Source: Verrucomicrobiia bacterium (GTDB lineage: Bacteria > Verrucomicrobiota > Verrucomicrobiia > Limisphaerales > UBA1319). From it: DNA of 64,000 nt. Of the stretch, positions 17,867 to 33,961 are shown piece after piece (position 1 is the first letter of the stretch; each line of letters starts with the position of its first letter). The position numbers and the translations under genes are program-made. A model generated the notes under the pieces. It was given only the letters and a program-made list of their open reading frames with translations. It made no database searches and had not been told where the DNA came from. The DNA lies in contig OY760937.1 in the NCBI GenBank assembly GCA_963664225.1, forward strand, positions 5,248,001 through 5,312,000. The letters are read 5' to 3'.

Positions 17867-18314
17867 GCGGGATGACGGTGAAATTACACTCATTGTGCGG
17901 GCGGTTCGTCCAAAAGGATCGCCTGCGGAAAACGGAATCGTGCGTAAAAAGAATCATCAAACCAAAGTAATAACCAGGCAACGCCCGGTGAAGCAGGGTG
18001 TTAACGTGCAAGCGCCGGTCGAGCCTGAACCCTTTGACGCCATGGCCTATCTGGTGTCCATGCCTGAGGAACCACCGAAGCCACCGGAACCACTGGACGA
18101 CTTCGATCCACTGGATTACGCGTGTCCAACGCCTAATTGGCCGCACGATTGGCCTGCACATATCATTCCACAATTCGAAGCCCAGGGATTCACCCGCATC
18201 CGGCTCGAACAGATCGTTCCGCATCCAGCCTGGACACTCCGCATGAAAAGCACTGGCAGGATTCTGACCGACATTGAGGCAAGCCGCGTTGTGCGTGCTG
18301 TTATCGAGCCATAA
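17832..18314 (+). CDS. Hypothetical protein, probably 3'-truncated at the direct repeat
   Basis: ORF follows the AAA gene and its stop overlaps the first bases of repeat copy 2; start uncertain. Confidence 0.4.
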   Translation: MWTSRNGSDSHKRDDGEITLIVRAVRPKGSPAENGIVRKKNHQTKVITRQRPVKQGVNVQAPVEPEPFDAMAYLVSMPEEPPKPPEPLDDFDPLDYACPTPNWPHDWPAHIIPQFEAQGFTRIRLEQIVPHPAWTLRMKSTGRILTDIEASRVVRAVIEP

Positions 18315-18349
18315 TGATTCAGTAATCCGCCTGATCTTCCAATCTGACA
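18313..18349 (+). repeat. 37-bp direct repeat, copy 2
   Basis: AATGATTCAGTAATCCGCCTGATCTTCCAATCTGACA; matches 8146-8182 at 35/37 positions. Confidence 0.9.
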
Positions 18350-18409
18350 ATTGTGCCGGCGGCTTTGGGCAATTGCGCTAAACGGTCATCGTAAACCGGC
18401 GGCCGACGC

Positions 18410-18469
18410 GCGCACCACCCGCCCCAATTGACGCCACAGCAGATCGGCGCTCAGGAAAAGCAATGTCAC
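18410..18469 (-). mobile_element. 60-bp internal relic of the same DDE transposase family as 33962-35140
   Basis: 54/60 identical to 34511-34570 by manual alignment. Confidence 0.8.
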
Positions 18470-18631
18470 TCCCTCCCCGAACATCAACCTGTCGGACTTC
18501 AAAGGAATAACCCCAGCCCTCAACCCTCCAATCAGTTCTGGAAGGAGGAGTAGGCTTTTCCCGAGGTGGCTTTACGCCAGCGATGCAGAGGGCGAAAAGC
18601 AAATCGTGACAAAAAGCATTCGAGATTAAAT

Positions 18632-19315
18632 TCAATGGCTCGGGGGTGCCAATCCCTCCTCTATTCTGCTCACACCACTTGCAATCGCATAGTGCGTCAG
18701 ACCCGCTATGGAGTGGATGTGCAGTTTATCCATCATGTTCTGGCGATGTTTTTCCGCGGTCTTGACGCTGATGCAAAGGTCGGCGGCGATCTGCTTGTTC
18801 GGAGCGCCTTCGGCGAGGAGTTGCAAAACCTCGATCTCACGACTGCTCAATGAGTCTGTTCGAGTGCATGATTGTGAGCCCTTCAGACACAATTTCCGGA
18901 ACTCTTGACGAATGTGGTTAGGAATGGAGCGGCTTAGAACAACGTGGCCGCTATTGGTTTCGCGTACGGCCGCGAGCAAGTCCTCCGTCGATGAGTCCTT
19001 GAGCAAATAGCCCGCCGCGCCGGCTTCCAACGCCTGCCGAATGGAGGGACCGTCGCTATGTGCCGAGAGTACCAGGACTTTCGCATTGGGAATTTCCCTC
19101 ATGATTTGCCGTGTTGCTTCCAGGCCGTTAAGCACAGGCATGGCGATGTCCATGATCACCACGGACGGCTCAAATTGCTTTGCCATTTGCACGGCCTGTC
19201 TGCCCGTCTCAGCTTCACCGACAACAGCGATGTCGTTCTCGGTTTCGAACAAGGCTCGCAGTCCTTCACGAACTACGCGGTGGTCGTCAACCACAAGTAT
19301 TCGAATTTGTCCCAT
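18632..19315 (-). CDS. NarL/FixJ-family response regulator (REC + LuxR HTH)
   Basis: VVDDH, MDIAMPVLNG, GYLLK, LSSREIEVLQLLAEG..NKQIA..L.IS.KT. Confidence 0.95.
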   Translation of the reverse strand: MGQIRILVVDDHRVVREGLRALFETENDIAVVGEAETGRQAVQMAKQFEPSVVIMDIAMPVLNGLEATRQIMREIPNAKVLVLSAHSDGPSIRQALEAGAAGYLLKDSSTEDLLAAVRETNSGHVVLSRSIPNHIRQEFRKLCLKGSQSCTRTDSLSSREIEVLQLLAEGAPNKQIAADLCISVKTAEKHRQNMMDKLHIHSIAGLTHYAIASGVSRIEEGLAPPSH

Positions 19316-19356
19316 AGCAGTCTATTTGGTTTGTTTGTTGCACGCATATTTCCCCA

Positions 19357-19371
19357 GCAGCACCTGTGCCA
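19357..19371 (-). promoter_or_regulatory. Sigma-54 (-24/-12) promoter of the NarL-type regulator
   Basis: TGGCACAGGTGCTGC (GG-N10-GC), 42 nt upstream of the ATG. Confidence 0.75.
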
Positions 19372-19414
19372 AGGCAGCCTGTGGGGCAAAGCCATCGGTT
19401 GAAGTAATCGCCAA

Positions 19415-19446
19415 TGCAATTTGCGATGTTTTGCTCGCAAGATGCA
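19415..19446. promoter_or_regulatory. Paired palindromic sites YGCA-N3-TGCR (candidate bEBP enhancer)
   Basis: TGCAATTTGCG at 19415 and CGCAAGATGCA at 19436. Confidence 0.65.
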
Positions 19447-19603
19447 AAACTGACGCCGAGCAGGGGGAGCTTTAGCGGCCCACGTGGCGAGCAGCAGGGA
19501 TGAGCCCGCCGCATTCGAGACAGGGTGTGCCAAGGGCTCGAACAATAGGTTGCTACTATTATTGGACCAAATCTGGCGGCAAGTTTCCGGCCGGAATATT
19601 GAC

Positions 19604-21016
19604 CTAAGGAGGCAATGTAACCATCGTCGCGGTCGGTAACGGGGGCCCGACGCTCGATTCCAATTCCCACTTCTTCATTCTGCGGTAAACCGTGGCCTGA
19701 TCGACGCCCAGGATTTGGGCGGCTTCGGCGACGGTTCGCGTCTGCGCCAGCACTCGCCGGATGTGCTGTTCTTCCAGTTGTTCCAAGGTTATGAGACCTC
19801 CGCTCTGATCCGGGCTGCCGCCATTAGTCCCGGGGCTGAGGTTCTGGCGAAGTTCGGTGGGCAGGTCGCCAGGAGTGATCCTGGAATCCCGTCCCAGGAT
19901 GACGGCGCGTTCTATGGCATTACGCAACTCGCGGAGGTTGCCGGGCCAGGCGTAAGAGTAGATGCTCGCGAGGGCTTCGTCGGTGAAACCGTCAAGCTGT
20001 CGCCCGCATCGGGCCGCGAAGTGCTTCGCATAATGTTCGGCGAAGCGCCTCAAGTCGGCGGGGCGTGAGCGCATCGGAGGTATTTGCACCGTGATAACAT
20101 TGAGTCGGAAATACAAGTCCTCACGGAAGGTTCCCTCCGCAACGCGCGCCTTGAGGTCGCGGTTGGTGGCGGCCAGCACCCGCACATTTGCCCTGCGCGT
20201 AACGTTTTCGCCCAAACGCTCATATTCGCGCTCCTGGAGCAGGCGGAGGAGTTTGGGTTGAATCTCCAGTGGGAGATCTCCAATTTCGTCCAGGAAGAGC
20301 GTGCCGCCCTCGGCGGCGGAGACCTTGCCCCAGTGATCTTTGACCGCCCCGGTGAATGAGCCCCGGACATGGCCGAACAGGTCGCTTTCCAGCAGTTCCC
20401 TGGAAAGACTTGGACAACTGACCGTGATGCATGGCTTGTCTGCCAGGTGGCTGTATTGATGAACCGCGCGCGCCGCCACGCTCTTGCCGGTGCCGCTTTC
20501 TCCGAGGATGAGAATTGACGCGGGGGTCTTCGCCGCGCGGAGGAGGATTTCCATGATCTCCTGCATGGCGGGCGCTGTGAAATCAAGGAGGCATTCAGCT
20601 TCTTGCAATTTGGTCTCGGTCACCTCCCGCTCCAGACGTTCTATCTTCTGGCCCATCTGGCTGAGACGCTGCAAACGCGCCAGCACGGTCAGGAACTGCT
20701 CATTCCGGAACGGCTTTTCGAGAAAGTCCGCCGCGCCGCGCCGCATGGCTTCGACCGCCGTCTTTACGTTGCCATCGGCGGTGAACATGACCACCGGCAG
20801 TTCGGGATTTGTTTTCTGAATTTCCGTCAACACATCCAGGCCGTTCTCCGGTCCGAGGTTAAGGTCCAGGAGCACCGCGTCAAATTTTTCCTCTTTCAGG
20901 CGCTTCAAGCCGAGTGGGCCGGAGGCTGCGCCTTCGGCGTAATGCTTCTCCTCTTCGATGAGTAAACAGGTTGCTTCTCGGAAGGTCTGGTCGTCGTCGA
21001 TTATCAGAAAATCCAT
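19604..21016 (-). CDS. Sigma-54-dependent response regulator (NtrC/AlgB-like enhancer-binding protein)
   Basis: REC domain (MDFLIIDDD, LLDLNL); AAA+ GESGTGKS, ESDLFGH.RGSFTGA, LFLDEIG, FREDLYFRL, WPGNLREL; Fis-type HTH. Start set to the ATG at 21016. Confidence 0.95.
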   Translation of the reverse strand: MDFLIIDDDQTFREATCLLIEEEKHYAEGAASGPLGLKRLKEEKFDAVLLDLNLGPENGLDVLTEIQKTNPELPVVMFTADGNVKTAVEAMRRGAADFLEKPFRNEQFLTVLARLQRLSQMGQKIERLEREVTETKLQEAECLLDFTAPAMQEIMEILLRAAKTPASILILGESGTGKSVAARAVHQYSHLADKPCITVSCPSLSRELLESDLFGHVRGSFTGAVKDHWGKVSAAEGGTLFLDEIGDLPLEIQPKLLRLLQEREYERLGENVTRRANVRVLAATNRDLKARVAEGTFREDLYFRLNVITVQIPPMRSRPADLRRFAEHYAKHFAARCGRQLDGFTDEALASIYSYAWPGNLRELRNAIERAVILGRDSRITPGDLPTELRQNLSPGTNGGSPDQSGGLITLEQLEEQHIRRVLAQTRTVAEAAQILGVDQATVYRRMKKWELESSVGPPLPTATMVTLPP

Positions 21017-21024
21017 GATTGAGT

Positions 21025-22191
21025 CTAGGTTGCTGGCTGTGGGAGCCGAATGATGAGAGTGGCACCCTCGCCGGGGATGCCCTCGCACTCCAGTTGTCCA
21101 TTCATCGCTTGCACGAGCTTCAGTGCAATACTGAGTCCCAAACCGCTGCAGGGTTCTCCACCCGTAGGTCGGGCTGAGAGACGGGCGTAGCGTCGAAACA
21201 TCCGCACCCGATCTTGTGCGGTGAAGCCGGGACCGTGATCCCGGATCCGGCATTCGACGTGTCCGGTGCCCGGACGCACGGAAATGATGATCCGTCCGCC
21301 TGCCGGTGAGAACTTTATGGCGTTGGAGAGCAGGTTTCCGAGCGCCTGATCGAGGGCGGACGCATCGGCGAGCACAGTGGTGCCCTCGCTGGCGAGGTCC
21401 CTCTCCAGCACCAACTTCTTGCTTTGAGCAGCCTCTGAGAATTGGAGGAGGGCATGGGCTGCGGCATCTGAAAGCTTAAGTCTCGCCAGGTTAAGAGAGA
21501 CGCAGCGGTCGGCGGCGGCGTTGGCGAGAAACTGGGTTACGAAGGTCAGCAACTGCCCCCCGGAACGCAGGATGTTTTTCGACAGCATGGCGGCGCGCTC
21601 ATCGCCCAGATTCTTGATCCGCTTATCCAATACCTGGGAGCTTATCTGCATGCCGCCAAGATGATTCTTCAAATCATGCGCCAGCATGCCGAGCAATTCA
21701 TCCTTATCCTCGGCCAGTTGCTTAAGCCGGTCGCGCGCGCATTTTAAATCGAGCTGGGTTTTAATCCTCAAGATCAGCTCGGCCTGGTTAAAGGGTTTGG
21801 TGATGTAGTCCACGCCCCCAGCCTCGAGAGCTTGCACCACCAGATCTTTGTCGTCCGCCGCAGAAACAAATATCACGGGAATTTCCCGCCAATCAGGATT
21901 CGCGCGCAGCCGCCGACAAACTTCGCATCCGTCCATCTCCGGCATCAGCAAATCGAGGAGAATTAAATCAGGCATGCGAACCGCCAACCGCTTAAGGGCG
22001 GTCGGCCCATCGAGCGCAGGGATGATTTCGTATCCCAACTTGCCCAGGACTGAACCAACGACCTGAATATTGGTCTGTTGGTCGTCCACCACCAGGATCC
22101 GGGCCAGCGCCAGTGTGCTGGCTTCGGGATTGAGCTGAGTCGTCGGAGCCTGAGGGGACGTGGGCAAAATCATTTCGGCAGGCTCTTGCAT
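21025..22191 (-). CDS. Hybrid response regulator-histidine kinase (REC-HisKA-HATPase)
   Basis: VVDD, LLDLLMPEMDG, DYITKPF; AHDLKNHL; NLLSNAIKF, DHGPG, GLGL. Confidence 0.93.
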   Translation of the reverse strand: MQEPAEMILPTSPQAPTTQLNPEASTLALARILVVDDQQTNIQVVGSVLGKLGYEIIPALDGPTALKRLAVRMPDLILLDLLMPEMDGCEVCRRLRANPDWREIPVIFVSAADDKDLVVQALEAGGVDYITKPFNQAELILRIKTQLDLKCARDRLKQLAEDKDELLGMLAHDLKNHLGGMQISSQVLDKRIKNLGDERAAMLSKNILRSGGQLLTFVTQFLANAAADRCVSLNLARLKLSDAAAHALLQFSEAAQSKKLVLERDLASEGTTVLADASALDQALGNLLSNAIKFSPAGGRIIISVRPGTGHVECRIRDHGPGFTAQDRVRMFRRYARLSARPTGGEPCSGLGLSIALKLVQAMNGQLECEGIPGEGATLIIRLPQPAT

Positions 22192-22192
22192 A

Positions 22193-24322
22193 TTAATTGG
22201 GCTCCGACAATCGTTTCACCAGATCTGGAAACCGATTAACTTGTTCCTCAAGCTCGACCACTTCATAGGCATCGGCCCGCTGAGCCAGAGCCTGAGCGTA
22301 TTCTGCCAGCGCCGGGCAAGGCCAGCTTTCCGCGAGGGCTTTTAGTTTCCCGGCAAAGGCTTTGGTTTCGTTGATCGCCAGATTGTCGCGGATCGTCGGC
22401 CATTCCTCCTTGCTCAGGCGGTGCAGCTCTGCGACGAATTCTGGGGGCGACGGGGACGGAGTGAGCGGGGGCGCGTTCGTGGTCCGTTCCGACGGCTCCC
22501 CCGGCTGTGCGCGGCGGGGCAGGAAGTGCGACACTTCGGTGAACAACTCGTGCTTCGAGAATGGCTTGCGCAAATGAGCATTGAACGTCTCCCGCATCCC
22601 GGCTTCGTCCTGGAGCTGCGTCGAGGCCGTGACTGCGATCACGGGGACCGCTTCCAGGCCGGGCGATTTGCGGATTTGGTTGAAAGCCTCCCGCCCGTCC
22701 ATGCCGGGCATACGGAGGTCGAGCAGGATGAGGTCTGGCCGAAGGGTTCGCGCCTTGCTGACTGCCTCGAGACCATCGCTGCCGAATTCAAGCTTGTGGT
22801 CTGAGCCTGCGAACATACTCGCAATGAGTTGGCGATTCTCCCCGTTGTCATCCACCACGAGCACCAAGGCTGGCTCCAGTTGGTTGAAGTCGCCGCCCGC
22901 CTCCGAGGATTGTGGCTCATTCGCCGGGAGGCGCATTGAGATCGGGATGTTCGGAAATCGCAGATGGAAGGTGGCGCCGTGGCCCAACGTGCTCGTCGCG
23001 AAAATGGTTCCGCCCATGGCCTCGGTCAAGCGCCTGACAATGGCAAGACCCAGGCCCGTGCCTTGCGTCTCTTTCTCGCGATTTGCACCGGCCTGGACGA
23101 ACGGCTTGAAAATGACCTCCAGTTTGTCTGGCGGAATGCCGACGCCGGTGTCCTCCACTTGGATGTTCAACACAATCTGGCTGCTGCTTTCCCCCTTCTC
23201 CCAATCAAGGCGCACATCAATACTACCGCGGTCGGTGAACTTCACGGCGTTGCCCACTAGGTTGACCATGATCTGGCGCAATCGGATGCGATCCAGCAAC
23301 AGGGAGCGGGGCAGATCGTCCGGGACCTTGCACTCCAGCTTAATGTTTTTCCGCAAGGCGGGTTCGGCGAAAATGGTTTGGATGAATTCGCCGATCTCCC
23401 GTGGGTTGGTGGGCTCCGGTTGTATCGTCAGCACGCCCGCCTCGATCTTCGACATGTCGAGAATGTCGTTGATAAGTTGCAGCAGCGAGGAGGCGCTGGA
23501 CCGGATGGATTTCAGATACTGGCGGTGCCTCGGCTCGTGCAGTTCGCCGTCGAGCAGCTCACTGAAGCCGAGAATGGAGTTCATGGGCGTGCGGATTTCG
23601 TGGCTCATGTTTGCGAGGAAGACGGTCTTCTCCTGGCTGTTGCGCTCGGCCTGGAGTTTGGCCTCAACCAGGGCTTGCTCGCGTTCCTTGTGCTGCAACA
23701 TCACACGAGAAAGCCAGAAGGCGAAGACGCCGGCCCAAATCCCCAACATCCCGGCGGCCAGGCTGGTCAAGCTGGCGCGAAGCAGTTCCTTTCGCGTGGA
23801 CTCGAGGTGAATCGCAACCAGGTGCCCCGGCGCCTGGCGAATCTGGCCCAACTCCGTCCGCAAATCGTCCAAGAGGTCCTTGCTCACACCCGTGGCGACA
23901 ATCCCTTTGGCGGCTGTAAAGCCTTGTGTCCTGCGCGTGTTGTTGACACTCTCGAACCGGTCGAGAATTACCGAAATCCGGTCCCGTAAACCAGCCACGC
24001 GCCGGAGCATCTCGGGATCGTTCCGCACAATGTCCACCAAATGGTCAAGCTCGATGGCCAGATTGGTCCGGCCTGCAAGCATCGGTACCAGAAACGCTTC
24101 GTCGCCGGTGATGACAAAACCGCGTTCACCGGTCTCACAATCAACAAGCAATTTCAGCACCTCTTGAGAAGAGACCTCGACGTCGAACGCATGCCGAGAC
24201 GCAGTCAGTCTGCGGGAAAGCTGCACCCATGTAACCAACGCGAGAACCACGCTCCCAATTGAAAGTGACAGCCATAGGACCACCACCGTCTTGTAAACGC
24301 TTCTGTTTGGTTGTCGCGGCAT
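22193..24322 (-). CDS. CHASE3-domain hybrid sensor histidine kinase (CHASE3-HisKA-HATPase-REC)
   Basis: Two TM helices around DCETGERGFVITGD (CHASE3); SHEIRTPMN, NLVGNAVKFT, DTGVGI, GTGLGL; REC LLDLRMPGMDG. Confidence 0.93.
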   Translation of the reverse strand: MPRQPNRSVYKTVVVLWLSLSIGSVVLALVTWVQLSRRLTASRHAFDVEVSSQEVLKLLVDCETGERGFVITGDEAFLVPMLAGRTNLAIELDHLVDIVRNDPEMLRRVAGLRDRISVILDRFESVNNTRRTQGFTAAKGIVATGVSKDLLDDLRTELGQIRQAPGHLVAIHLESTRKELLRASLTSLAAGMLGIWAGVFAFWLSRVMLQHKEREQALVEAKLQAERNSQEKTVFLANMSHEIRTPMNSILGFSELLDGELHEPRHRQYLKSIRSSASSLLQLINDILDMSKIEAGVLTIQPEPTNPREIGEFIQTIFAEPALRKNIKLECKVPDDLPRSLLLDRIRLRQIMVNLVGNAVKFTDRGSIDVRLDWEKGESSSQIVLNIQVEDTGVGIPPDKLEVIFKPFVQAGANREKETQGTGLGLAIVRRLTEAMGGTIFATSTLGHGATFHLRFPNIPISMRLPANEPQSSEAGGDFNQLEPALVLVVDDNGENRQLIASMFAGSDHKLEFGSDGLEAVSKARTLRPDLILLDLRMPGMDGREAFNQIRKSPGLEAVPVIAVTASTQLQDEAGMRETFNAHLRKPFSKHELFTEVSHFLPRRAQPGEPSERTTNAPPLTPSPSPPEFVAELHRLSKEEWPTIRDNLAINETKAFAGKLKALAESWPCPALAEYAQALAQRADAYEVVELEEQVNRFPDLVKRLSEPN

Positions 24323-24561
24323 TTTGTTGGTTCCTATCAAAACTCGTTCGTGGAAATCATCCGCGCGAACAAACTACAACGTCGAAAGCAGAATGTCTAA
24401 TTGGAGCCCCAGCGATTCTCAATATGGCGATTCCCACGGAATCTCCGCTCGCTGAGCCAACAAACTCCCTTTTGCGAAACTGTCGTGCCCTGAATCTGCA
24501 GCAAAGTCGCCCAAAAGCCTGGGGCGCGGACCTCCTGTCTTCCGAAGGTTGTGGTCCTAAT

Positions 24562-24725
24562 TAGAATTCAAATCGAGAGAAGTTCTCCCACCTTGGACAA
24601 ATTGGAGATTCGGTGGCTTTTACGATGACGAGCAGCGGTATCGCCAAAAGCGCGCCGGGCATATCCCAGAGCCCGGCGAAGAGCATCAGCGAAACAAAAA
24701 TCACAAGCGGATTTAAAGCGTGACC
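24562..24725 (-). pseudogene. C-terminal fragment of an AI-2E family transporter
   Basis: Minus strand LNPLVIFVSLMLFAGLWDMPGALLAIPLLVIVKA; no upstream gene body. Confidence 0.7.
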
Positions 24726-24863
24726 GCGGACATGCCGACGATCGATCTAAAACAGGGAATGAAGTTCAGACCAGCGGCGCCCCAGCCACCCATAGCGGCG
24801 TTGGGCTGGCCCAGCAGATGGAGGCTGATTCCGACCACATTTAAGCCTCTTTTTAGATTCTTC

Positions 24864-25019
24864 TCAGCCAAGTTTTTTGCCTTGAATCAGATTCACGACA
24901 ATCATGACCAAGGCGACTACCAGAAGGATGTGGATAAATCCCCCTAGCGTGTAAGAGGAGGCCAATCCCAAGACCCACGCAATAATCAGGACGAGGGCAA
25001 CAGTATAAAGGCTATTCAA
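24864..25019 (-). CDS. lmo0937-family small membrane protein (absent from the ORF track)
   Basis: 51 aa from a TTG start: SLYTVALVLIIAWVLGLASSYTLGGFIHILLVVALVMIVVNLIQGKKLG. Confidence 0.8.
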   Translation of the reverse strand: MNSLYTVALVLIIAWVLGLASSYTLGGFIHILLVVALVMIVVNLIQGKKLG

Positions 25020-25090
25020 TTATGGCCAAAGGTTTGAAGAAGTGAGAAAGGAAGTTCCCAGCCGCAGACACACAAGGACGGAACGCTGCA

Positions 25091-25705
25091 TCACGGCGCA
25101 GAATCAATTATTAACCGCCTGCGCGGGGATGAGGAAGCCCCCGCCTTTGGCCATTGGTAGTGCAGGATGTCCCCGACACCCTCTGGAGCTGGGGCCGGGC
25201 ATTCACGGCGGGACCCGATGTCCTGTGCCCCGGCAGCTTTAAAGATTGCCTTGGCCCGCGCTATTTCACGCGCACTCTCGGCATGGACCGAGATGAGGAC
25301 GATGTCGGGCTTGATCTTCCCCGCAAAGCGCGTGGCCTCATATTCAGGGATGCGCGTCCCAATTAGAGCGCCGACGATGCCGCCAATTGCCGCGCCGACG
25401 GCTGCGGAACTCAACGTTGCAAAGGCGGGGCCCACGGCGATGAGTGGCTCGATGCCTGGAAGGGGCAGGGTGCCCACACCAAGCAGCCAGCCCAGCGCTC
25501 CGCCCAGAATCCCCCCGGTCGCCGCCCCAGCGGAAGCTCCTTCCGGGGCTTTGGTGTGTTTTGTATGAGCAAAGTCCCTCGACGTAGTTTTGTCGGGAAA
25601 CATGGTTGAGATATCGTCATGGGTGAAGCCCGCAGCCAGGAGATCTCGTATTAGGATCGCCTGGCTGCGAGTGGTGGCCATACAGAATGCCGAGGTTTTT
25701 GCCAT
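25091..25705 (-). CDS. General-stress-type membrane protein with glycine-zipper helices (paralog of 30174-30836)
   Basis: DFAHTKHTKAPEGA..GA..GG..GGALGWL, IPEYEATRF, LISVH. Confidence 0.8.
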   Translation of the reverse strand: MAKTSAFCMATTRSQAILIRDLLAAGFTHDDISTMFPDKTTSRDFAHTKHTKAPEGASAGAATGGILGGALGWLLGVGTLPLPGIEPLIAVGPAFATLSSAAVGAAIGGIVGALIGTRIPEYEATRFAGKIKPDIVLISVHAESAREIARAKAIFKAAGAQDIGSRRECPAPAPEGVGDILHYQWPKAGASSSPRRRLIIDSAP

Positions 25706-25794
25706 ATTAAGTTCTTTCTTTGGTATTCGCGCTTGATCAAGATCTCGGAGAATTTCGCCGGTCCACATGATTTCAACGCCAAGCTGTTGCTTTA

Positions 25795-25809
25795 GCTAAG
25801 GCTGTGCCA
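25795..25809 (-). promoter_or_regulatory. Sigma-54 promoter
   Basis: TGGCACAGCCTTAGC (GG-N10-GC) upstream of the gene starting at 25705. Confidence 0.75.
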
Positions 25810-25889
25810 TTATTCAGCAATCCATACAAACTATTGCTTCGTAGTGACTTATGTTAATATAACTCACCGGTCCTGCCCATTTTTTAATA

Positions 25890-25930
25890 TGCATAATGCA
25901 AGTGGCAGAACATTCGTTCCGCAATTTGCG
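25890..25930. promoter_or_regulatory. Paired YGCA-N3-TGCR sites
   Basis: TGCATAATGCA at 25890 and CGCAATTTGCG at 25920. Confidence 0.65.
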
Positions 25931-26104
25931 AGAAACCTGGCGAACCGGCAGAGAAGATTTCCGTTGCCCCGAGCCGTGGCCAGGAGCATGAATAATCACG
26001 CGACGATCTTGGTTATTGTTTGAGCGGAATTTCACCAACTTCCGGGGGACGCCTTCACGAGACCAGGCAGGCTTCCAATCGTCCGTGACTTCCAGCAACG
26101 GACT

Positions 26105-26147
26105 TGCAAAATGCAATATGCAGCCCTTTAAAGCGCCGCAAAGTGCA
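26105..26147. promoter_or_regulatory. Paired YGCA-N3-TGCR sites
   Basis: TGCAAAATGCA at 26105 (overlapping TGCAATATGCA at 26112) and CGCAAAGTGCA at 26137. Confidence 0.65.
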
Positions 26148-26222
26148 AGAGATCTACCGCTAAAAACCCACGAAATCATTGCATTTATCGCGTATATGAA
26201 TGGGTTTCTTAAACAAATCCGC

Positions 26223-26237
26223 TGGCACGGTTCCTGC
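26223..26237 (+). promoter_or_regulatory. Sigma-54 promoter of the csbD unit
   Basis: TGGCACGGTTCCTGC (GG-N10-GC). Confidence 0.8.
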
Positions 26238-26299
26238 AAAGGCAATTTCAGTTGCGCAAACGTGCGCAATCCAAAGAAACAATAACGAAATCTAAATCC

Positions 26300-26494
26300 A
26301 TGAATACGCTCGAACTGAAAGGTGATTGGAACATTGCAAAGGGCAAACTTAAACAGAAGTATGCTCAACTGACCGATGACGACCTAAAATTCGCGAAAGG
26401 TCAAGAGGAGGAATTGCTGGGACGTATCCAGAAGCGAACCGGCAAGACCCGGGCGGAAGTGGAACGCGCCGTTAAGGATTGTGCCGGGTGCTAA
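26300..26494 (+). CDS. csbD: CsbD/YjbJ family stress protein
   Basis: KGDWNIAKGKLKQKYAQLTDDDL...GRIQKRTG; 64 aa. Confidence 0.92.
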   Translation: MNTLELKGDWNIAKGKLKQKYAQLTDDDLKFAKGQEEELLGRIQKRTGKTRAEVERAVKDCAGC

Positions 26495-26585
26495 AGCCCC
26501 CGATCCGCCGCTCCCAGGAAAATCTGGGGGGCGGCGAACCTTAAGGTTACGGAAAACCTTATTCGGACATAACATGCAAGAAATT

Positions 26586-26735
26586 ATGAAAACCACACAA
26601 TTCAATCGCCTCATCATCGTAATCCTCGCCGTGGCGTTGTTCGGTCTCGCCACCGCGGGTTGTAAACACACCGCGAACGGTGCGGGGAAGGATATCGAAA
26701 AGGTGGGCGAGAAGATTCAAGAGAAGACCCAATAG
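26586..26735 (+). CDS. Entericidin A/B family lipoprotein
   Basis: Lipobox TAGC followed by HTANGAGKDIEKVGEKI; 49 aa. Confidence 0.85.
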   Translation: MKTTQFNRLIIVILAVALFGLATAGCKHTANGAGKDIEKVGEKIQEKTQ

Positions 26736-26857
26736 CTTAGGGTCCGAAAATGCGCGAATAGACCAAAGAAAGGCTTGTCGTCCGAACCTGTGCCTCCCCG
26801 ACGGTCGTTAACGGACGCAGGACTGGCAGAATCAGTGAGCATAAGAACAAAACCGAA

Positions 26858-27232
26858 ATGAAACGCACCGGCAACATGGTAGAACCCAAACGTGGGCGAT
26901 CTGCCAGCACATTCAACAATCCCTGCGCGAGGCCACACAGGTATGCTCAGATCGATACCAGCAAAGGCCAGGCCGGGACGCTCATTGAATTCCGGATTGA
27001 GGCGCCGAATGCGCACTCGGTCAAACTCGCTGCGGACTTCACGGATTGGGAGAAAGCCGCGATCAAACTGGTTAACAAAGGCAATGGAATCTGGGGGATG
27101 CAGTTGCCGTTGCCTCCGGGACGTTACGCCTACCGCTTCCTGATTGATGGGGACTGGCACGACGACCCGCGTTGCGCCGGGCGCGTTCCGAATGACTTCG
27201 GCACGAGCAATTCAGTGATTGAAGTTGTTTGA
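26858..27232 (+). CDS. Glycogen-binding (CBM48 / AMPK-beta-like early-set) domain protein
   Basis: APNAHSVKLAADFTDW...GIW...LPPGRYAYRFLIDGDWHDDP...NDFGTSNSVI. Confidence 0.85.
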   Translation: MKRTGNMVEPKRGRSASTFNNPCARPHRYAQIDTSKGQAGTLIEFRIEAPNAHSVKLAADFTDWEKAAIKLVNKGNGIWGMQLPLPPGRYAYRFLIDGDWHDDPRCAGRVPNDFGTSNSVIEVV

Positions 27233-27351
27233 ACACGAAGGTGAGTGCAGCAAACCCTGTCGGCTCGGCCTGGATTAGACACGATGCAAAATCCGAAGCT
27301 CACCATTTTGTGGACCCGTGAGCGCCCCGTGTCTGTTCCAGCGTTTCTCTT

Positions 27352-28212
27352 TCACTTTATCGTAAATCTAAAAGTGTTTGTTCGTGCTTCTTCCTTTAGA
27401 ATGACGGTCACGAATTTGCCTGCGGATTCATTGAGTCGGCTCTTGAACGCTGCGTAACTTCTCGCATCGGCCTCGTCGTCGGACACCATTTCCGGGCTAT
27501 CACCCGTTTTACTCGGCATGGGAGGCGGTGCGGGGCGCGCGCTGGCTGCCATTTCCCCCCAAGTCCTTGGCGACAGGGAAGCATTAAGTCCCATGAATTC
27601 CCGGGTTGGAATGGCAAAGCTCACGTTCTGTGCGTCCACCTTGGTCCACGAGACAATGCCGATGACTTCACCACGATTGTTGAGAATTGGGCCCCCACTA
27701 TTTCCCGGAGAAATGGGACAGGAAAGCTGATACTGTAGAAATCCGTTTATGCTCCGAACCTGGCTGATCAAACCGTCGCCGATGCTAAAATCAAAGCCTT
27801 TGGGTGCGCCAATCACGTAAGCCCGAGCCGCCACAGATTGCAGGTCGTTGCATAAAATCGCCTGCCGCCGGGGCAGTTTCTTTTCCAGCTTCAATAACGC
27901 CAGATCGCGGCCGCCGTTATGGTCAATGCACCCGATCACTCTCACGCGTTGTCCGTCAGCGAACACGGCCCAAACGGAACGCGCATCTGCAATGACGTGC
28001 CAGGCTGTCAGCGCCACATCATTTCCGCGGGCAAGCACAGCGCTGCCTACAAACCTCTTCCCGCTCTGGTTTTCCACTTCCAACGTCATCACCGAAGGCA
28101 GCACTTTTTGGTAGAGTTTTTCGGGCTCTAACGCCGCCTGCGCATGCTCCGGAATTCCCGCATGAATCAGCCATAAGCCGAGCCAGACAATTTGATGCAA
28201 CTTACAAGTCAC
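27352..28212 (-). CDS. Secreted trypsin-like (S1C-type) serine protease without PDZ domain
   Basis: Signal peptide; catalytic triad motifs TAWHV, DLALL, ISPGNSGGP. Confidence 0.88.
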   Translation of the reverse strand: MTCKLHQIVWLGLWLIHAGIPEHAQAALEPEKLYQKVLPSVMTLEVENQSGKRFVGSAVLARGNDVALTAWHVIADARSVWAVFADGQRVRVIGCIDHNGGRDLALLKLEKKLPRRQAILCNDLQSVAARAYVIGAPKGFDFSIGDGLISQVRSINGFLQYQLSCPISPGNSGGPILNNRGEVIGIVSWTKVDAQNVSFAIPTREFMGLNASLSPRTWGEMAASARPAPPPMPSKTGDSPEMVSDDEADARSYAAFKSRLNESAGKFVTVILKEEARTNTFRFTIK

Positions 28213-28589
28213 GATTGTTATATCGTCACTTCACGCCGTTCCTGAAGTGCGCATTGTTCATACTCCTGGTAAATCTTATCAGGGGGTAGCGGACACGTGA
28301 CAGACGCCCCGCGGCAGATTCACCGCGTGAGTGTGGGTGGAAGGCAGTGAACCGCAGACCCAGACGGTCAGTGCCACCCATGGCAGAACACCGTTCGCAG
28401 CTTATTCGACGCGCCTCCCTTTTTTTCCGAACAAAATGGCATTATTACCATAATGACTCACGAGAACCGATCGCGATCAGGAGTTTCCTTGTGGCCGCCA
28501 GGAAAACGCTTGGTTTCAATGGTAAAGTGCTAGCCCGGAACGAATTGAAAAACCGAACTCGTGCGTGAACTCTCTTTCACTAGAAGAAG

Positions 28590-28629
28590 TGCAGAATGCG
28601 ACACATACTCGGCTTTTTCGCAAATTGCA
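28590..28629. promoter_or_regulatory. Paired YGCA-N3-TGCR sites
   Basis: TGCAGAATGCG at 28590 and CGCAAATTGCA at 28619. Confidence 0.65.
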
Positions 28630-28719
28630 GATGCTTTACGTTCACCAACATTTCCCCTTGGTGCCTACCGACAGCTTAATCTGCTTATAATCAATAGGAT
28701 AGAGCGCCACACGTTAGGT

Positions 28720-28734
28720 TGGCACTGCGTTAGC
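28720..28734 (+). promoter_or_regulatory. Sigma-54 promoter of the PRC/BON operon
   Basis: TGGCACTGCGTTAGC (GG-N10-GC); IHF-like AATCAATAGGATA near 28689. Confidence 0.75.
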
Positions 28735-28824
28735 TAGGAGGAGCGAGGCCAAGCGCATCGGCGTCACGCCGGGGCTTGGAAATGACAAAAACCATCTACG
28801 CAAAAAAGTAAAACAAAAAGAAAT

Positions 28825-30138
28825 ATGAAACGTAAACTGCAAATCATCATCAGCGCCTCAGCTGCCTCGTTCCTGGCGTTTTCGGCTTTGGCCGAAGACC
28901 AACCCAATCCGACGCGGGAGGGACTGGATTACACTCATGGCCGCATGCCCAGTGCGCAGCGGCCGGACAGTATAAATGACGCGGCTAAAGCCAGCGACCT
29001 CATCGGCATGACAGTCAAAAACTACCAGAATGAAAAAATCGGCAAAGTCGAAGACCTCGCGGTGGATGTGGAATCCGGCCGGGTTGTCCAAGTGATCGTG
29101 TCCACCGGAGGATTCATCGGTATCGGAGATACGCAGACAGCTGTGCCACCAAGTGCCTTTCATCACGATGTTTCCAACCAGGTGCTTCAGCTGGATGCCA
29201 ACAAAGAAAAACTGCAGAAGGCACCTAAAATCGACATGTCGAAATGGTCTGATTACTCTGACTCAAATCATCTAGCTCAAGTTTATTCCCTTTACGGCCA
29301 AGAACATACCTTGGGTTTTATTCAAGCCGGAGAAGCGGCTCGGGATGGCCAACGCACCACGGCGAATGCACCCGACATTGATTCAAACCGTAAGACGGAT
29401 GGGCCATGGGACAAGGACCGCGTCTCGAGCGATGGCCAAAGCCAATGGATGATTCCGGCATCACGGCTGAGCCAGGTCCAGAAGGCAAGCAAGCTCCTGG
29501 GCACGCCCGTGAACAATTTGCAGGATGAGAAGTTGGGCAAGGTGGAAAACCTCCAAGTTGATCTTCCCGCGGGCCGCATTCTGGCGGTCATCGTTTCCTC
29601 CGGCGGTTTCCTCGGGATGGGTGAGGAACTAAGCGCCATTCCGCCCACCGCGCTTCGATTCACTGCCGATCGCGACACTCTCAAGCTTGATGCCTCGAAG
29701 GAAATGTTGGCAAGCGCACCGCATTTTAAAGCCAACCAATGGCCTGACTTCGCCCAACCTGTTTACTCCGGCGGAGTGTATCGCGCCTACCATGTTGAGC
29801 CGTATTTCACCAGCGATGCGGCAACGCAGCCGGACAACACGACGCTTAACGTTCGCGACCGCAATAACAGCACCCTCACCCCGCTCGACCAGGGCAACAA
29901 CAAGGCAGACCTGGATATAACGGCGCAAATTCGAAAACAAATCATCGCCACAAAGGATATGTCCGTGAACGCCAAGAATGTGAAGATCATCACTGAGAAT
30001 GGCCGCGTCACCCTCCGCGGGCCGGTCAATACAGCCGAGGAAAAGCGTTTGATCGGTGAAATTGCGGAACGCATCGCCCGTTCCGAAAATGTGGACAACC
30101 AACTGGAAGTGAAAGTGACTAATACCACCAGCGAGTAA
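28825..30138 (+). CDS. Periplasmic protein with two PRC-barrel domains and a C-terminal BON domain
   Basis: Signal peptide; two KAS.L.G..V.N.Q.EK.GKVE.L.VD..GR...V.VS.GGF.G.G modules; NVKIITENGRVTLRGPV...VDNQLEV. Confidence 0.92.
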   Translation: MKRKLQIIISASAASFLAFSALAEDQPNPTREGLDYTHGRMPSAQRPDSINDAAKASDLIGMTVKNYQNEKIGKVEDLAVDVESGRVVQVIVSTGGFIGIGDTQTAVPPSAFHHDVSNQVLQLDANKEKLQKAPKIDMSKWSDYSDSNHLAQVYSLYGQEHTLGFIQAGEAARDGQRTTANAPDIDSNRKTDGPWDKDRVSSDGQSQWMIPASRLSQVQKASKLLGTPVNNLQDEKLGKVENLQVDLPAGRILAVIVSSGGFLGMGEELSAIPPTALRFTADRDTLKLDASKEMLASAPHFKANQWPDFAQPVYSGGVYRAYHVEPYFTSDAATQPDNTTLNVRDRNNSTLTPLDQGNNKADLDITAQIRKQIIATKDMSVNAKNVKIITENGRVTLRGPVNTAEEKRLIGEIAERIARSENVDNQLEVKVTNTTSE

Positions 30139-30173
30139 TTTAATCGAACAAAACAAAAAGAAAGGTAAATATT

Positions 30174-30836
30174 ATGTCAAAGAAATCAGTGTTTTGTATC
30201 GCCTCCTCGCGCGGGCAAGCCGATCATATCGTCGAGCTGCTCAAGATCGCGAACTTCTCGAACAACGACATCTCCGTGCTGTTTCCCGACAAGGGGACGA
30301 CTCGCGATTTCGCGCACGAGAAGAATACCAAAGCCCCGGAAGGCGCCGTTACCGGCGCGGGCACTGGTGGCGTCGTCGGCGGGGCGCTGGGCTGGATCGC
30401 TGGGATTGGCGCATTAGCCATTCCTGGAGTCGGCCCATTCATCGCCGCGGGGCCGATCATCGCCGCGCTGAGCGGTGCTGCCGTCGGTGCTGCCGTCGGT
30501 GGTATTGCTGGCGGATTAATCGGCCTGGGCATTCCCGAAATCGAAGCCAAACGCTACGAAGGCAAAGTCAAGGCGGGCAATCTCCTCATCTCGGTCCATA
30601 CCGAGAATTCAGAGGAAATTTCCCGGGCCAGGAACATCTTCACCAGAGCTGGCGCGCAGGACATCTGCACCACGGGTGAGGCGTCCACACCCAAGGAAGG
30701 CCGGGCCGCCGATCGCCCCGCTCACATATCCGATGATGGCCGGACCTCTAATCGAACGGCAACGTTAACCGAAGAAACACGGGCTGCGGATTGCCCGGTC
30801 CGTTCATCCGACGATAGCCACTCCGTAAACCGGTAA
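30174..30836 (+). CDS. General-stress-type membrane protein with glycine-zipper helices
   Basis: DFAHEKNTKAPEGA...GALAIPGVGPFIAAGP...GIPEIEAKRYE. Confidence 0.85.
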   Translation: MSKKSVFCIASSRGQADHIVELLKIANFSNNDISVLFPDKGTTRDFAHEKNTKAPEGAVTGAGTGGVVGGALGWIAGIGALAIPGVGPFIAAGPIIAALSGAAVGAAVGGIAGGLIGLGIPEIEAKRYEGKVKAGNLLISVHTENSEEISRARNIFTRAGAQDICTTGEASTPKEGRAADRPAHISDDGRTSNRTATLTEETRAADCPVRSSDDSHSVNR

Positions 30837-30900
30837 AATTGTCGGGGTGCCCTGGCGGTTGAATGACCCGGCGCCTGGGCTTCCAACCTTTTATAAAACT

Positions 30901-31509
30901 ATGAACACTACGAACAAAAAAATACTTAAGGATTTATTTTTGGACGAACTCGCGGATATGTATGACGCGGAGCATCGGATCGTCCAGGCCATTCCAAAGT
31001 TGGCCAGGGCCGCCACCTCCCCTGATCTCAAAACTGCGCTGGAGGCTCATTTGCATGAAACCGAAGGCCAGGTCGTAAAACTCGAAAAAGTCTTCGAATT
31101 ATTTGACGAAAAAGCCAAAGGCAAGCCATGCGAAGCCATGCAGGGGCTTTTGAAAGAAGGCGACGAAATCGCAGCCACTTTCAAGGGTTCACCGGCCATC
31201 AATGCGGCATTAATCTCCGCCGGCCAGAAGGTCGAACATTATGAGATGGCCTCTTATGGCTGCCTGCGCGAGTGGGCGGTGTTGCTGGGAAATGAAAAAG
31301 CCGCCGGACTCCTGCAAGAAATCCTGGATCAGGAGAAAGCAGCTAATGCTACGCTCAGCCGGTTGGCACAAGACGGCTGCAACGACGAAGCTTTAGGCGA
31401 ATCCAACGAAAAGGAATCGGAAACTTCGGACAAATCATCGGGTAAATCGAGCCACTACGGTCGGCCTGTCGGAGCGACCGCTGTTCGTGGCGTTTCACCG
31501 AAACGCTAA
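30901..31509 (+). CDS. DUF892 / YciE-YciF ferritin-like stress protein
   Basis: DELADMYDAE, HLHETEGQ, CEAMQGLLKEG, QKVEHYEMASYG. Confidence 0.92.
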   Translation: MNTTNKKILKDLFLDELADMYDAEHRIVQAIPKLARAATSPDLKTALEAHLHETEGQVVKLEKVFELFDEKAKGKPCEAMQGLLKEGDEIAATFKGSPAINAALISAGQKVEHYEMASYGCLREWAVLLGNEKAAGLLQEILDQEKAANATLSRLAQDGCNDEALGESNEKESETSDKSSGKSSHYGRPVGATAVRGVSPKR

Positions 31510-31576
31510 TCATCATGTCTACGCGACCGCCGCAAGACGGTCGCGGAACTTTCCATTACTTTTAACTAAACAATCT

Positions 31577-31699
31577 ATGATTGCAGTAATTATTCCAATG
31601 TTCGCCGCCGCAGGTTACTCGGCGATATATCTCCTGGGAGGCGGAGGCCTTATTGGTGCCATCGTCATCTTCTTCATCGCAAAAATGTTTCGTAAATGA
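31577..31699 (+). CDS. Small (40 aa) hydrophobic membrane protein
   Basis: MIAVIIPMFAAAGYSAIYLLGGGGLIGAIVIFFIAKMFRK; A-rich leader like the neighbouring genes. Confidence 0.6.
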   Translation: MIAVIIPMFAAAGYSAIYLLGGGGLIGAIVIFFIAKMFRK

Positions 31700-32031
31700 A
31701 CGTTTCCCTCCATCCGCCGTTGAAGTCGGGTCCGGAAATCACAAGTATTCCAGGCGTGCCTGCTTGGAGATAAATGCATCCTGCGGGTTTATCAATCGGC
31801 ATATCGAACCGGCTGAATGGGTAACAGGAAGTGGATAAACAGAGTCAGATATTATAGATTACGGCGGGGCGGGCCGCCTGGCTTGTTCCCCATGAACACG
31901 GCGGAATAGATGGGAACACCGTGTATTCACAAATATGTCAAACCGGACTGGTAGCAACCTCTCATCCTGGCGAATTTCAATGAGAACACCGCAAGTCGAA
32001 TCGTCTGGCAGCAAAATAACATGGGAAAAAG

Positions 32032-33234
32032 ATGAAATCCCCGGCTCCTCAAAAAAAAGCAGGGAATCCCCATTCGATCTCGTTTTATGTGCTGCTGGGA
32101 GCGGTGGCGTTTGCCTTCATCAAAACGTTCACGCAGTTGTCTCCCATTCTGCTCTCGTTTCTCCTCATTTTGCTGATTTCCCTTGCCGTCAATCCCATCA
32201 TTTCCAGGATGCGCGCCTTGACGGGCGGGAGAAAAATCGCCACCGCGATTCTTGCGACTGCATTTATGGCTCTGCTCGTTCTGACGGGACTGGCCTTTTT
32301 CGCGCCAATGAAAACCTCGGTCGCAAAGCTATCGGACGAGTTTCCGGTTTACTGGGCGCGGATCCAAAAGCCCTTGATCAAATTGGAGCGCCAGGCGGCT
32401 CATTCCGAGGACAAAATTCAGGCCGAAGTCACTTCCGAAATTTCCCGTTCCACGAATAAATTGGAGAGGCCCGAAGTCGCGCCGGCCAGCGAACCGCCTC
32501 CGGACAAAACCACAAAGGGTACCGGTTCGATTCGTTCCGGTTTGACCCAGACACTACAGGGCGTGGCCGGTCGCTTTACGGCGGTGGCATTCAATGTGGC
32601 CCAGATTGTGTTCGTTTTGGCGACCGTCCTCGTTGGCACCACCTATACGCTCATGAACCCCCGCCCGATTTTCGAGGCGATCTTTTCTCTGGTGCCCGAG
32701 CGCCACCACGCTCAGACATTGACCATCATGCAACGCATTGCAAAATTTGTCCCCGGTTGGGCATTGGCAACAGCTCTGGCCATGCTGACCGTCGGTTTTT
32801 TGGTTTTTGTGCTGATGTGGCCCCTGCTGGGTTTTACCGATGCCTTGGTCCTGGGACTCATCGCGGGTGTCTTTGAAGCCATTCCGTATCTTGGCCCCAT
32901 CCTCAGCGCGCTGCCCGCGCTCATGTTCGCTCTGACCAAGGGAGGATGGACTCCCCTCTGGGTTCTACTCGCGTATCTCGCTGTACAGCTCCTGGAAAAT
33001 AATGTGATCATCACTCTGATCGTCTCGCGCAGCATGAAGCTGCATTCCACGGCAGTCATCTTTTCCATGCTTTTGTGTGTCGCTGCCTTCGGTGTTCTGG
33101 GCGTTTTGGTCGCGGCACCCCTGGTCGCGATTTTGCAGATATTGCATGATGAACTCTATCGAAAACGCTATCTTCCCAACGCCACAGACGCAGACCTGGA
33201 AAAGCTGGCGCGAAAATCTCTGGGCGAAAAGTAG
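32032..33234 (+). CDS. AI-2E family transporter
   Basis: Multi-TM protein; IPYLGP, VQLLENNVI, FGVLGVLVAAPL. Confidence 0.9.
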   Translation: MKSPAPQKKAGNPHSISFYVLLGAVAFAFIKTFTQLSPILLSFLLILLISLAVNPIISRMRALTGGRKIATAILATAFMALLVLTGLAFFAPMKTSVAKLSDEFPVYWARIQKPLIKLERQAAHSEDKIQAEVTSEISRSTNKLERPEVAPASEPPPDKTTKGTGSIRSGLTQTLQGVAGRFTAVAFNVAQIVFVLATVLVGTTYTLMNPRPIFEAIFSLVPERHHAQTLTIMQRIAKFVPGWALATALAMLTVGFLVFVLMWPLLGFTDALVLGLIAGVFEAIPYLGPILSALPALMFALTKGGWTPLWVLLAYLAVQLLENNVIITLIVSRSMKLHSTAVIFSMLLCVAAFGVLGVLVAAPLVAILQILHDELYRKRYLPNATDADLEKLARKSLGEK

Positions 33235-33319
33235 GCGGGACGGCTCAAACAATATTCTGCTCGCATGAAACACTTCCTCACACCCCCAGCTAGGCACAAC
33301 CAGAAAATAGAACATTAAT

Positions 33320-33941: not shown

Positions 33942-33961
33942 ATATCTGGACAGTGAAACGT

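Follow-up and report, generated by a model that had tools for sequence, protein, structure and literature searches.

A locus in a genome of the order Limisphaerales (Verrucomicrobiia bacterium, assembly GCA_963664225.1) raises the question of whether sigma-54 and a bacterial enhancer-binding protein (bEBP) encoded at the same place control a set of genes of the stress-protection type. The locus lies in the window analyzed here, a stretch of 64,000 nucleotides at positions 5,248,001-5,312,000 of one 5.78-Mb contig (OY760937.1; 5,783,426 bp). An initial annotation of the window had proposed that the bEBP binds paired copies of the palindrome YGCA-N3-TGCR upstream of four sigma-54 promoters and in this way drives stress-type genes. 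This proposal is strongly supported by comparison with related genomes, in which the architecture and a bEBP orthologue co-occur and are linked, the cargo is conserved and the recognition helix is shared, and by the presence of rpoN in the host genome. On such sequence comparison, we put the probability that the adjacent bEBP acts through the paired sites on these sigma-54 promoters at about 0.8.

The four TGGCAC-N7-GC boxes were read directly in the sequence where they had been proposed. P1 (TGGCACAGGTGCTGCT, 19356..19371, minus strand) has its first T at 19371 and lies 40 bp from the ATG at 19315 of the gene that follows; P2 (TGGCACAGCCTTAGCT, 25794..25809, minus strand) starts with the T at 25809; P3 (TGGCACGGTTCCTGCA, 26223..26238) and P4 (TGGCACTGCGTTAGCT, 28720..28735) are on the plus strand. 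All four promoters contain GG-N10-GC and each has one mismatch to TGGCACNNNNNTTGCW. The eight palindromes were also present, starting at 19415/19436, 25890/25920, 26105/26137 and 28590/28619, and form four candidate upstream activating sequences (UAS). The first pair (TGCAATTTGCG and CGCAAGATGCA, 19415..19446) has a gap of 10 bp, the second (TGCATAATGCA and CGCAATTTGCG, 25890..25930) a gap of 19 bp and the fourth (TGCAGAATGCG and CGCAAATTGCA, 28590..28629) a gap of 18 bp. The third UAS (26105..26147) combines TGCAAAATGCAATATGCA, in which two copies overlap, with CGCAAAGTGCA; the overlapping copy, a ninth palindrome, starts at 26112. From P1 to P4 the start-to-start spacing is 21, 30, 32 and 29 bp, the third being 25 bp when counted from the overlapping copy, and the gap between the proximal palindrome and TGGCAC is 43, 80, 75 and 90 bp. 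Four further TGGCAC-N7-GC matches in the window (31647 and 46495 and 49469, minus strand; 40711, plus strand) are located within coding sequences and have no paired palindromes.

The distribution of the palindrome in the host genome was determined. There are 507 copies in 5,783,426 bp, or 5.6 per 64 kb, in agreement with the initial estimate of about five by chance, and the window holds 17. Pairs within 60 bp form six clusters genome-wide, against approximately 2.7 expected by chance; four of the six fall in this 10-kb stretch, and these are the only ones with a suitably spaced and oriented sigma-54 box, the two elsewhere having none. Among 75 crude intergenic sigma-54 candidates of the genome, three have two palindromes in the 250 bp upstream, all at this locus; P3 is absent from those candidates solely because its intergenic region is covered by a spurious open reading frame (ORF) of 184 amino acids. 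A relaxed scan of the whole genome returned 20 sites, of which only these four have zero mismatches; when, as a control, the pair was required 3' of the promoter instead, 9 per genome were counted. The GC profile of the region is ordinary (53-60%, compared with 56% for the genome), and DNA comparison of both flanks with a genome of the same genus (G001) revealed short matches only.

Further regulon members in the host genome were sought with a position weight matrix scan for pairs and a one-mismatch scan, which yielded noise in coding sequences and a single other locus (G000:C1:1373412-1373560). This locus has a sigma-54 promoter, TGGCATGCTTCCCGCT, with a TGCAnnnTGCC pair 33 bp apart, and is situated directly 3' of a gene for a bEBP with PAS and AAA+ domains and 5' of NifX-like and Mrp/ParA-like genes. 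The same NifX-like promoter type occurs in locus L053 of genome G135 (relatives are given by their L and G numbers where they have to be told apart). The PAS-bEBP locus probably belongs to a regulon of its own that uses a related half-site.

Conservation of the architecture was analyzed in a sample of 400 other genomes from the host's order, using the exact pattern GTGCCA-N65-95-YGCAN3TGCR-N8-24-YGCAN3TGCR, which does not include the -12 GC, and the same pattern read backwards as control. The pattern gave 46 matches in 34 genomes and the control 7. Several matches on different contigs were found in G347 (five), G013 (four) and G131 (three). The -12 GC was present in 37 of the 47 promoters of the fetched loci although the pattern had not asked for it, and the matches without it were evident false positives, in a CAACCTG repeat inside leuS or in other coding sequence. 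In other orders of the same class 18 of 131 genomes carried the pattern (one control match), and in other classes of the phylum 1 of 267 did, a tandem-repeat artefact (one control match). The CAACCTG heptamer repeat in the leucyl-tRNA synthetase gene, seen in L047 and L050 (G320 and G120), matches the palindrome and is a recurrent false positive.

A one-mismatch scan of all fetched loci provided 91 distinct promoter regions. In these the gap between the two sites, for which 8-24 bp had been allowed, peaks at 9-11 and 19-21 bp (chi-square against a uniform distribution, p 1.6e-21), so that the centres of paired sites are approximately 21 or 31 bp apart, which corresponds to two or three helical turns. 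The two peaks indicate helical phasing of the paired sites. The motif derived from the 91 regions is tTGCAwwwTGCAa, with uninformative flanks and only the eight core bases conserved; the -24 element reads TGGCA(C/T), the -12 element GC(T/A), and the sites lie 35-105 bp from TGGCA. Sequence features by which enhancers are recognized were found, namely paired dyads, placement on one helical face, an upstream distance in keeping with the usual 70-150 bp from the start, and retention in orthologous promoters. A variant arrangement was seen in another family of the class (L164, L165 and L166, in G694, G761 and G496), where two divergent TGGCAC boxes share one TGCA-N3-TGCA pair with a gap of 22; five of the six boxes have CTTC or TTCC in the -12 region where GC would be expected, both sides lead to 52-amino-acid ORFs without a Pfam match, and in G694 a bEBP orthologue is 341 bp away.

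The association between motif, -24/-12 box and bEBP, proposed as a check in the initial annotation, was then determined. With a criterion of E at most 1e-120, 94 of the 400 sampled genomes had a bEBP orthologue. The exact pattern occurs in 26 of these 94 genomes and in 8 of the 306 others (Fisher p 8.6e-12, a test that treats kin genomes as independent, which they are not). Seven of the eight orthologue-free matches have no -12 GC, and the eighth is the NifX-like gene type of G135. In 16 genomes the distance from a match to the orthologue gene is at most 5.1 kb, and in many cases no more than a few hundred bp. The orthologues fall into two groups, with approximately 61-74% and 45-59% identity. 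Five same-class genomes of other orders were tested; all five have the orthologue, three of them with an adjoining match.

A scan of the GTDB genome collection provided 80 loci with orthologues 65-74% identical to the bEBP, mostly from metagenome-assembled genomes (MAGs) named Verrucomicrobiota, Verrucomicrobiia, Limisphaerales or Pedosphaera and in a minority under other, probably mislabelled names. The relaxed architecture, scored within 6 kb, was found at 33 of the 80 loci (49 sites in 855 kb) and at 43 when a CGGCA -24 box (YGGCA) was allowed. In a comparison set of 26 loci of 40%-identical paralogues (109 kb) it was found at none, whereas 6.2 sites would be expected at equal density. Gene order is also kept, with a REC-containing histidine kinase gene upstream of the orthologue on the same strand at 70 and a CHASE3 kinase gene at 64 of the 80 loci. 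Divergent csbD was present at 18 and DUF5670 at 19 of the 80.

The bEBP (19604..21016, minus strand) has 470 amino acids and the domain order REC, AAA+ and Fis-type HTH_8, with Pfam matches to Sigma54_activat (PF00158, 1.4e-63), Response_reg (1.1e-25), AAA_lid_14 and HTH_8 (4.3e-8); a longer ORF of 549 amino acids overlaps the upstream gene, and its extension carries no domain. The receiver has the acidic pocket and the phospho-acceptor Asp (residues IIDDD, LLDLNL, MFTADG and EKPF), and the AAA+ domain has Walker A GESGTGKS and Walker B FLDEIG. The loop, canonically GAFTGA, reads GSFTGA, one change away. Since it does not reach any of the NCBIfam equivalog cut-offs shown (AtoC, 371 bits with a cut-off of 714; NtrC, 358 with 559; PEP_resp_reg, 353 with 503; ZraR, 312 with 760), the protein could not be assigned to AtoC, NtrC, ZraR, GlrR, LuxO, NtrX or the PEP-CTERM regulator and is an unnamed NtrC-family response-regulator bEBP. 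The label AlgB-like that it had initially received found no support, no AlgB model being among the best 25 of 102 NCBIfam families listed.

The host genome has one rpoN (PF04552, 201.9 bits, G000:C1:594943-595416) and 17 bona fide bEBP genes. Twelve orthologues from both classes were compared, and in most of them the recognition helix of the HTH reads D(Q/P)ATLYR(K/R)RKK, single variants allowed; the bEBP of the window has the near form DQATVYRRMKK. The helix is common to both orthologue groups and reads differently in five paralogues of the same genome. From this pattern and the linkage of motif and gene we infer that the bEBP binds the palindromes. Some sigma-54 candidates and bEBP genes of the genome occur as identical distant pairs (3851456 and 5763675; 1593813 and 5778493; 1306427 and 2798827; 446186 and 4334810), which suggests large duplicated segments.

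The proposed conservation upstream of orthologous genes was also borne out, as the architecture precedes the same gene families in relatives. CsbD was found behind it in L067/L139, L093 and L155; BON in L088, L139 and L150; PRC-BON in L038, L072, L155 and L169; DUF892 in L072, L109, L122 and L147; DUF1328 in L044, L061, L102, L114, L118 and L136; DUF883 in L093, L116, L139 and L152; Ku in L041 and L155; Pyrid_ox_like in L040; and AI-2E in L037/L152 and L143. DUF3185, DUF3309, DUF5670, YflT, PqiA-MlaD and apolipoprotein-like coiled-coil proteins also occupy this position in relatives, and BON and PRC-BON were downstream again in two of the five same-class genomes tested. In L083 and L113 the CHASE3 kinase gene comes immediately after the promoter; in L139 (behind DUF883 and a 45-amino-acid ORF) and L152 (behind AI-2E) it stands further down the unit. 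Genome G013 has three paralogous genes for secreted proteins of approximately 1,040-1,076 amino acids (at L065 1818 and 9203 and at L066 1319), all three with a site gap of 11, a distance of 89 and almost the same distal site; a CBM_6 domain is present in one of them.

The gene assignments made for the locus itself were confirmed by Pfam. The first gene after P1 (18632..19315, minus strand) encodes a NarL/GerE-type response regulator (Response_reg 1.6e-30, GerE 1.7e-19), and the ORFs downstream of it (18378-18635 and 17790-18350, minus strand; 17832-18314, plus strand) have no Pfam or NCBIfam match. On the minus strand P2 is followed by a glycine-zipper protein gene (25091..25768; weak Gly-zipper_Omp match, 1.4e-4, below cut-off) and a gene for a small membrane protein of the DUF5670/lmo0937 family (24864..25019; Pfam 1.6e-14, NCBIfam lmo0937_fam_TM above cut-off). 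Further along the same strand, Pfam identified a CHASE3-HisKA-HATPase-REC hybrid sensor kinase (22193..24340) and a REC-HisKA-HATPase kinase (21025..22191), which precede the bEBP gene. Between DUF5670 and the CHASE3 kinase gene, a tblastn search with the AI-2E protein of L152 revealed a frameshifted AI-2E transporter gene remnant (24618..24838, minus strand; E 4e-10), which represents the C-terminal third of the protein, with residues ~299-412 in two frames. In L152/L037 an intact AI-2E gene occupies the position of the remnant, behind a sigma-54 promoter.

Behind P3 on the plus strand are genes for a CsbD-like protein (26300..26494; 1.5e-12), an entericidin-family small lipoprotein (26481..26735; Entericidin 5.1e-6 at residues 64-81), whose true start is probably further downstream, and a protein with a CBM48/AMPK1_CBM glycogen-binding module assigned by Pfam (26858..27232). 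The csbD leader contains TTGCGCAA-ACG-TGCGCAA (26243-26261, plus strand), two copies of a self-complementary octamer at approximately +1 to +15 of P3, which could be an operator or form an RNA hairpin. Between the csbD unit and the fourth UAS, and convergent to that unit, is a trypsin-like serine protease gene (27352-28212, minus strand); none of the sigma-54 boxes points at it, and the 80 orthologue loci yielded no homologue.

Behind P4 on the plus strand are genes for a PRC-PRC-BON protein (28825..30138; PRC 2.1e-27, BON 5e-13), a YflT-like protein (30174..30836; weak YflT match, 1.9e-3, below cut-off), of which homologues with 65-77% identity were found in three of the four orthologue loci with a match, and a YciF-like ferritin-fold protein of the DUF892 family (30847..31509; 1.5e-54). 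They are followed by a hydrophobic 40-amino-acid ORF without a Pfam match (31577..31699) and an AI-2E family transporter gene (32032..33234; 1.6e-41), which is probably the last gene of the unit. The 79-nucleotide PRC-BON leader holds an inverted repeat, GGCCAAGC...GCTTGG (28736-28790, plus strand), which could fold and has no Rfam match; a search of 17000-34000 of the window with Rfam matched no family.

These features suggest the following mechanism. An extracytoplasmic signal would be sensed by the CHASE3 hybrid kinase and passed, probably via the adjacent REC-kinase, to the receiver domain of the bEBP; we infer both this order of phosphotransfer and the kind of inducing signal from sequence. 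A search of the last 119 residues of the CHASE3 kinase for an Hpt domain, with E values up to 1 accepted, gave none. The phosphorylated bEBP would oligomerise on the TGCA-N3-TGCA pairs, two or three helical turns apart and approximately 45-90 bp upstream of the promoters, and by ATP hydrolysis would open the closed complexes of sigma-54 holoenzyme at the four promoters. The cargo so expressed would comprise CsbD, entericidin, PRC-BON, YflT-like, DUF892, DUF5670 and glycine-zipper proteins, plus the AI-2E transporter. In this genome alone, a second tier may come from the NarL-type regulator under P1.

P2 probably also reads on into the kinase-kinase-bEBP operon, which would give positive feedback, an autoregulation that the initial annotation had not included. 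P2 is assigned this role because relatives place the architecture before the kinase operon and because a decayed AI-2E gene lies between DUF5670 and the kinase gene. An intrinsic-terminator scan gave 22 candidates compared with 19.7 in shuffles; as this is not above shuffles, it is synteny that carries the proposed read-through.

Several observations weigh against control of these promoters by the bEBP as a conserved stress system. The exact pattern was missing from 68 of the 94 orthologue-bearing genomes, and 37 of the 80 orthologue loci had no architecture even in the relaxed scan, likely owing to degenerate sites, a CGGCA -24 box, short contigs or targets elsewhere in the genome. A search of nine genomes from the same family, among them the one of the same genus (93% complete), did not find the system, which points to a patchy history. 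The NarL-type regulator had been named as a target, and P1 does point at its gene, but the gene is not conserved at the orthologue loci, so that this part of the proposal did not extend to relatives. Genes that do not belong to stress responses also stand behind the architecture, among them the approximately 1,040-amino-acid secreted proteins of G013, a methyltransferase, GH127 and MTHFR. At the loosest threshold approximately 10-16 sites in 5.8 Mb are noise, which corresponds to some 2 in 855 kb; the backward-read control, with 0 matches in the relaxed scans, underestimates it, as the 9 per genome of the control with the pair on the 3' side show. The failure to detect an Hpt domain belongs with these points, as does the look-alike TGCAnnnTGCC pair of the PAS-bEBP locus, since related bEBPs may share half-site preferences.

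That the system is the general stress response of the class is a tentative reading, to which we give somewhat less than an even chance, and the label 'general stress' is drawn from gene content. The same mechanism could instead provide a narrow response that is set off by one signal, for example envelope damage, stationary phase, or osmotic or desiccation stress. The cascade starts from a single CHASE3 sensor, the regulon of the host is small, with four promoters and approximately 13 genes at one locus, and many of the cargo proteins are of envelope or periplasmic types (BON, entericidin, Gly-zipper and PqiA-MlaD), all of which is in keeping with such a restricted role. We give it a lower chance than the broad reading, although the sequence is compatible with both: the cargo of relatives includes cytoplasmic, DNA-repair and redox items of the kind usual in broad stress regulons (Ku, Pyrid_ox_like, DUF892 and a thioredoxin-reductase-type Pyr_redox_2), and G013 and G347 have four to five promoters on different contigs.

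It is improbable that the palindromes are bound by another regulator, be it the NarL-type one, a repressor or any of the genome's 16 other bEBPs. The architecture co-occurs with and is linked to this particular orthologue group across the order and the class and is missing from all 26 paralogue loci, which argues against another bEBP, even though the PAS-bEBP locus of the host has its look-alike pair upstream of its own sigma-54 promoter and the NifX-like gene type shows the exact pattern in G135, a genome without the orthologue. The motif is conserved at orthologue loci where the NarL-type gene is not, and the position, pairing and phasing of the sites fit enhancers and not promoter-overlapping operators. 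Although simple repeats do produce false positives (CAACCTG in leuS of L047 and L050, a CATTGCA-type repeat in G509), we regard it as very unlikely that the clusters arose by chance or represent a repeat without regulatory function and that the TGGCAC-N7-GC boxes are idle, since four correctly oriented pairs stand in 10 kb against some 2.7 chance pairs in the whole genome, the eight core bases are conserved and the site flanks are not, and dozens of genomes keep the arrangement, together with the unrequested -12 GC, in front of the same gene families.

Verrucomicrobiota are an abundant but poorly tractable phylum of soil and freshwater. To our knowledge, no general-stress regulator has been described for them, and RpoS, SigB and EcfG are confined to other phyla. 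In the part of the literature available to us no description was found of stress control by sigma-54 in Verrucomicrobiota, nor of a regulon of CsbD, BON, DUF892 or DUF1328 genes driven by sigma-54. A cross-phylum survey of sigma-54 published in 2025 refers to Verrucomicrobiota, in its accessible text, solely in connection with motility and with ABC permeases in Opitutia, and neither 'general stress' nor 'CsbD' appears in its main text (PMC12316311). As the enhancer motif is short, phased and conserved, the regulon becomes predictable in hundreds of uncultured genomes; if the model is correct, paired TGCA-N3-TGCA would be an enhancer code that allows the regulon to be read in any genome or MAG of the class. 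The locus would also offer experimenters defined promoters, one regulator and one sensor.

The mode of action resembles that of the NtrC-family systems NtrB/NtrC, AtoS/AtoC, ZraS/ZraR and DctB/DctD, with which the bEBP shares the domain order REC, AAA+ and Fis-type HTH. Paired, phased dyad enhancers approximately 80-130 bp upstream of a -24/-12 promoter are alike in both, and so is autoregulation of the regulator's own operon, known for glnALG and zraSR and proposed here. On the other hand, the site is an 11-bp TGCA-N3-TGCA dyad, whereas that of NtrC has 17 bp; the sensor is a CHASE3 hybrid kinase with a separate REC-kinase, unlike those of the NtrC-family systems; and the cargo is of the stress-protection type instead of nitrogen, acetoacetate, zinc or dicarboxylate genes.

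Sigma-54 and a bEBP also answer stress in the PspF/psp system, but Psp comprises one or two operons and its bEBP has no REC domain, unlike the one described here. The chlamydial bEBP CtcC has no DNA-binding domain, we know of no enhancer sites for it, and the CtcB/CtcC cargo of late-stage membrane and secretion genes differs from that found here. Within the same PVC superphylum as our host, this two-component bEBP system and sigma-54 are reported to control a developmental or stress-linked gene set (PMC10597470). In the Rrp2-RpoN-RpoS cascade of Borrelia sigma-54 acts only through rpoS, whereas here the sigma-54 promoters are directly before the effector genes. A response-regulator bEBP is reported to stand at the top of stress and adaptation control in Borrelia (PMC4014564).

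The effector families, here or in relatives, are the same as those of the RpoS regulon of E. coli, the SigB regulon of Bacillus and the EcfG-NepR-PhyR regulon of Alphaproteobacteria. In E. coli, osmY (BON), yciF (DUF892), yjbJ/csbD, elaB (DUF883), ecnB (entericidin), ytjA (DUF1328) and pqiA are RpoS-dependent; yqjD (DUF883), yflT, general stress protein 26 (Pyrid_ox_like), Ku and PRC-barrel are further general-stress families, some of them SigB- or EcfG-dependent. RpoS, SigB and EcfG are alternative factors of the sigma-70 family controlled by proteolysis or partner switching. The promoters described here are, in contrast, of the sigma-54 type, which needs an ATP-driven activator, with an enhancer, a phosphorelay and no leaky expression. 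What appears to be new is the stress-protection cargo of RpoS, SigB and EcfG regulons behind sigma-54 promoters, the NtrC-type mode of action being known. If the model holds, the system would stand beside RpoS, SigB and EcfG as a fourth, sigma-54-based bacterial general stress response with a different control logic, in which the promoters would be silent without an activated ATPase and a tight off-state would be combined with phosphorelay input and positive feedback.

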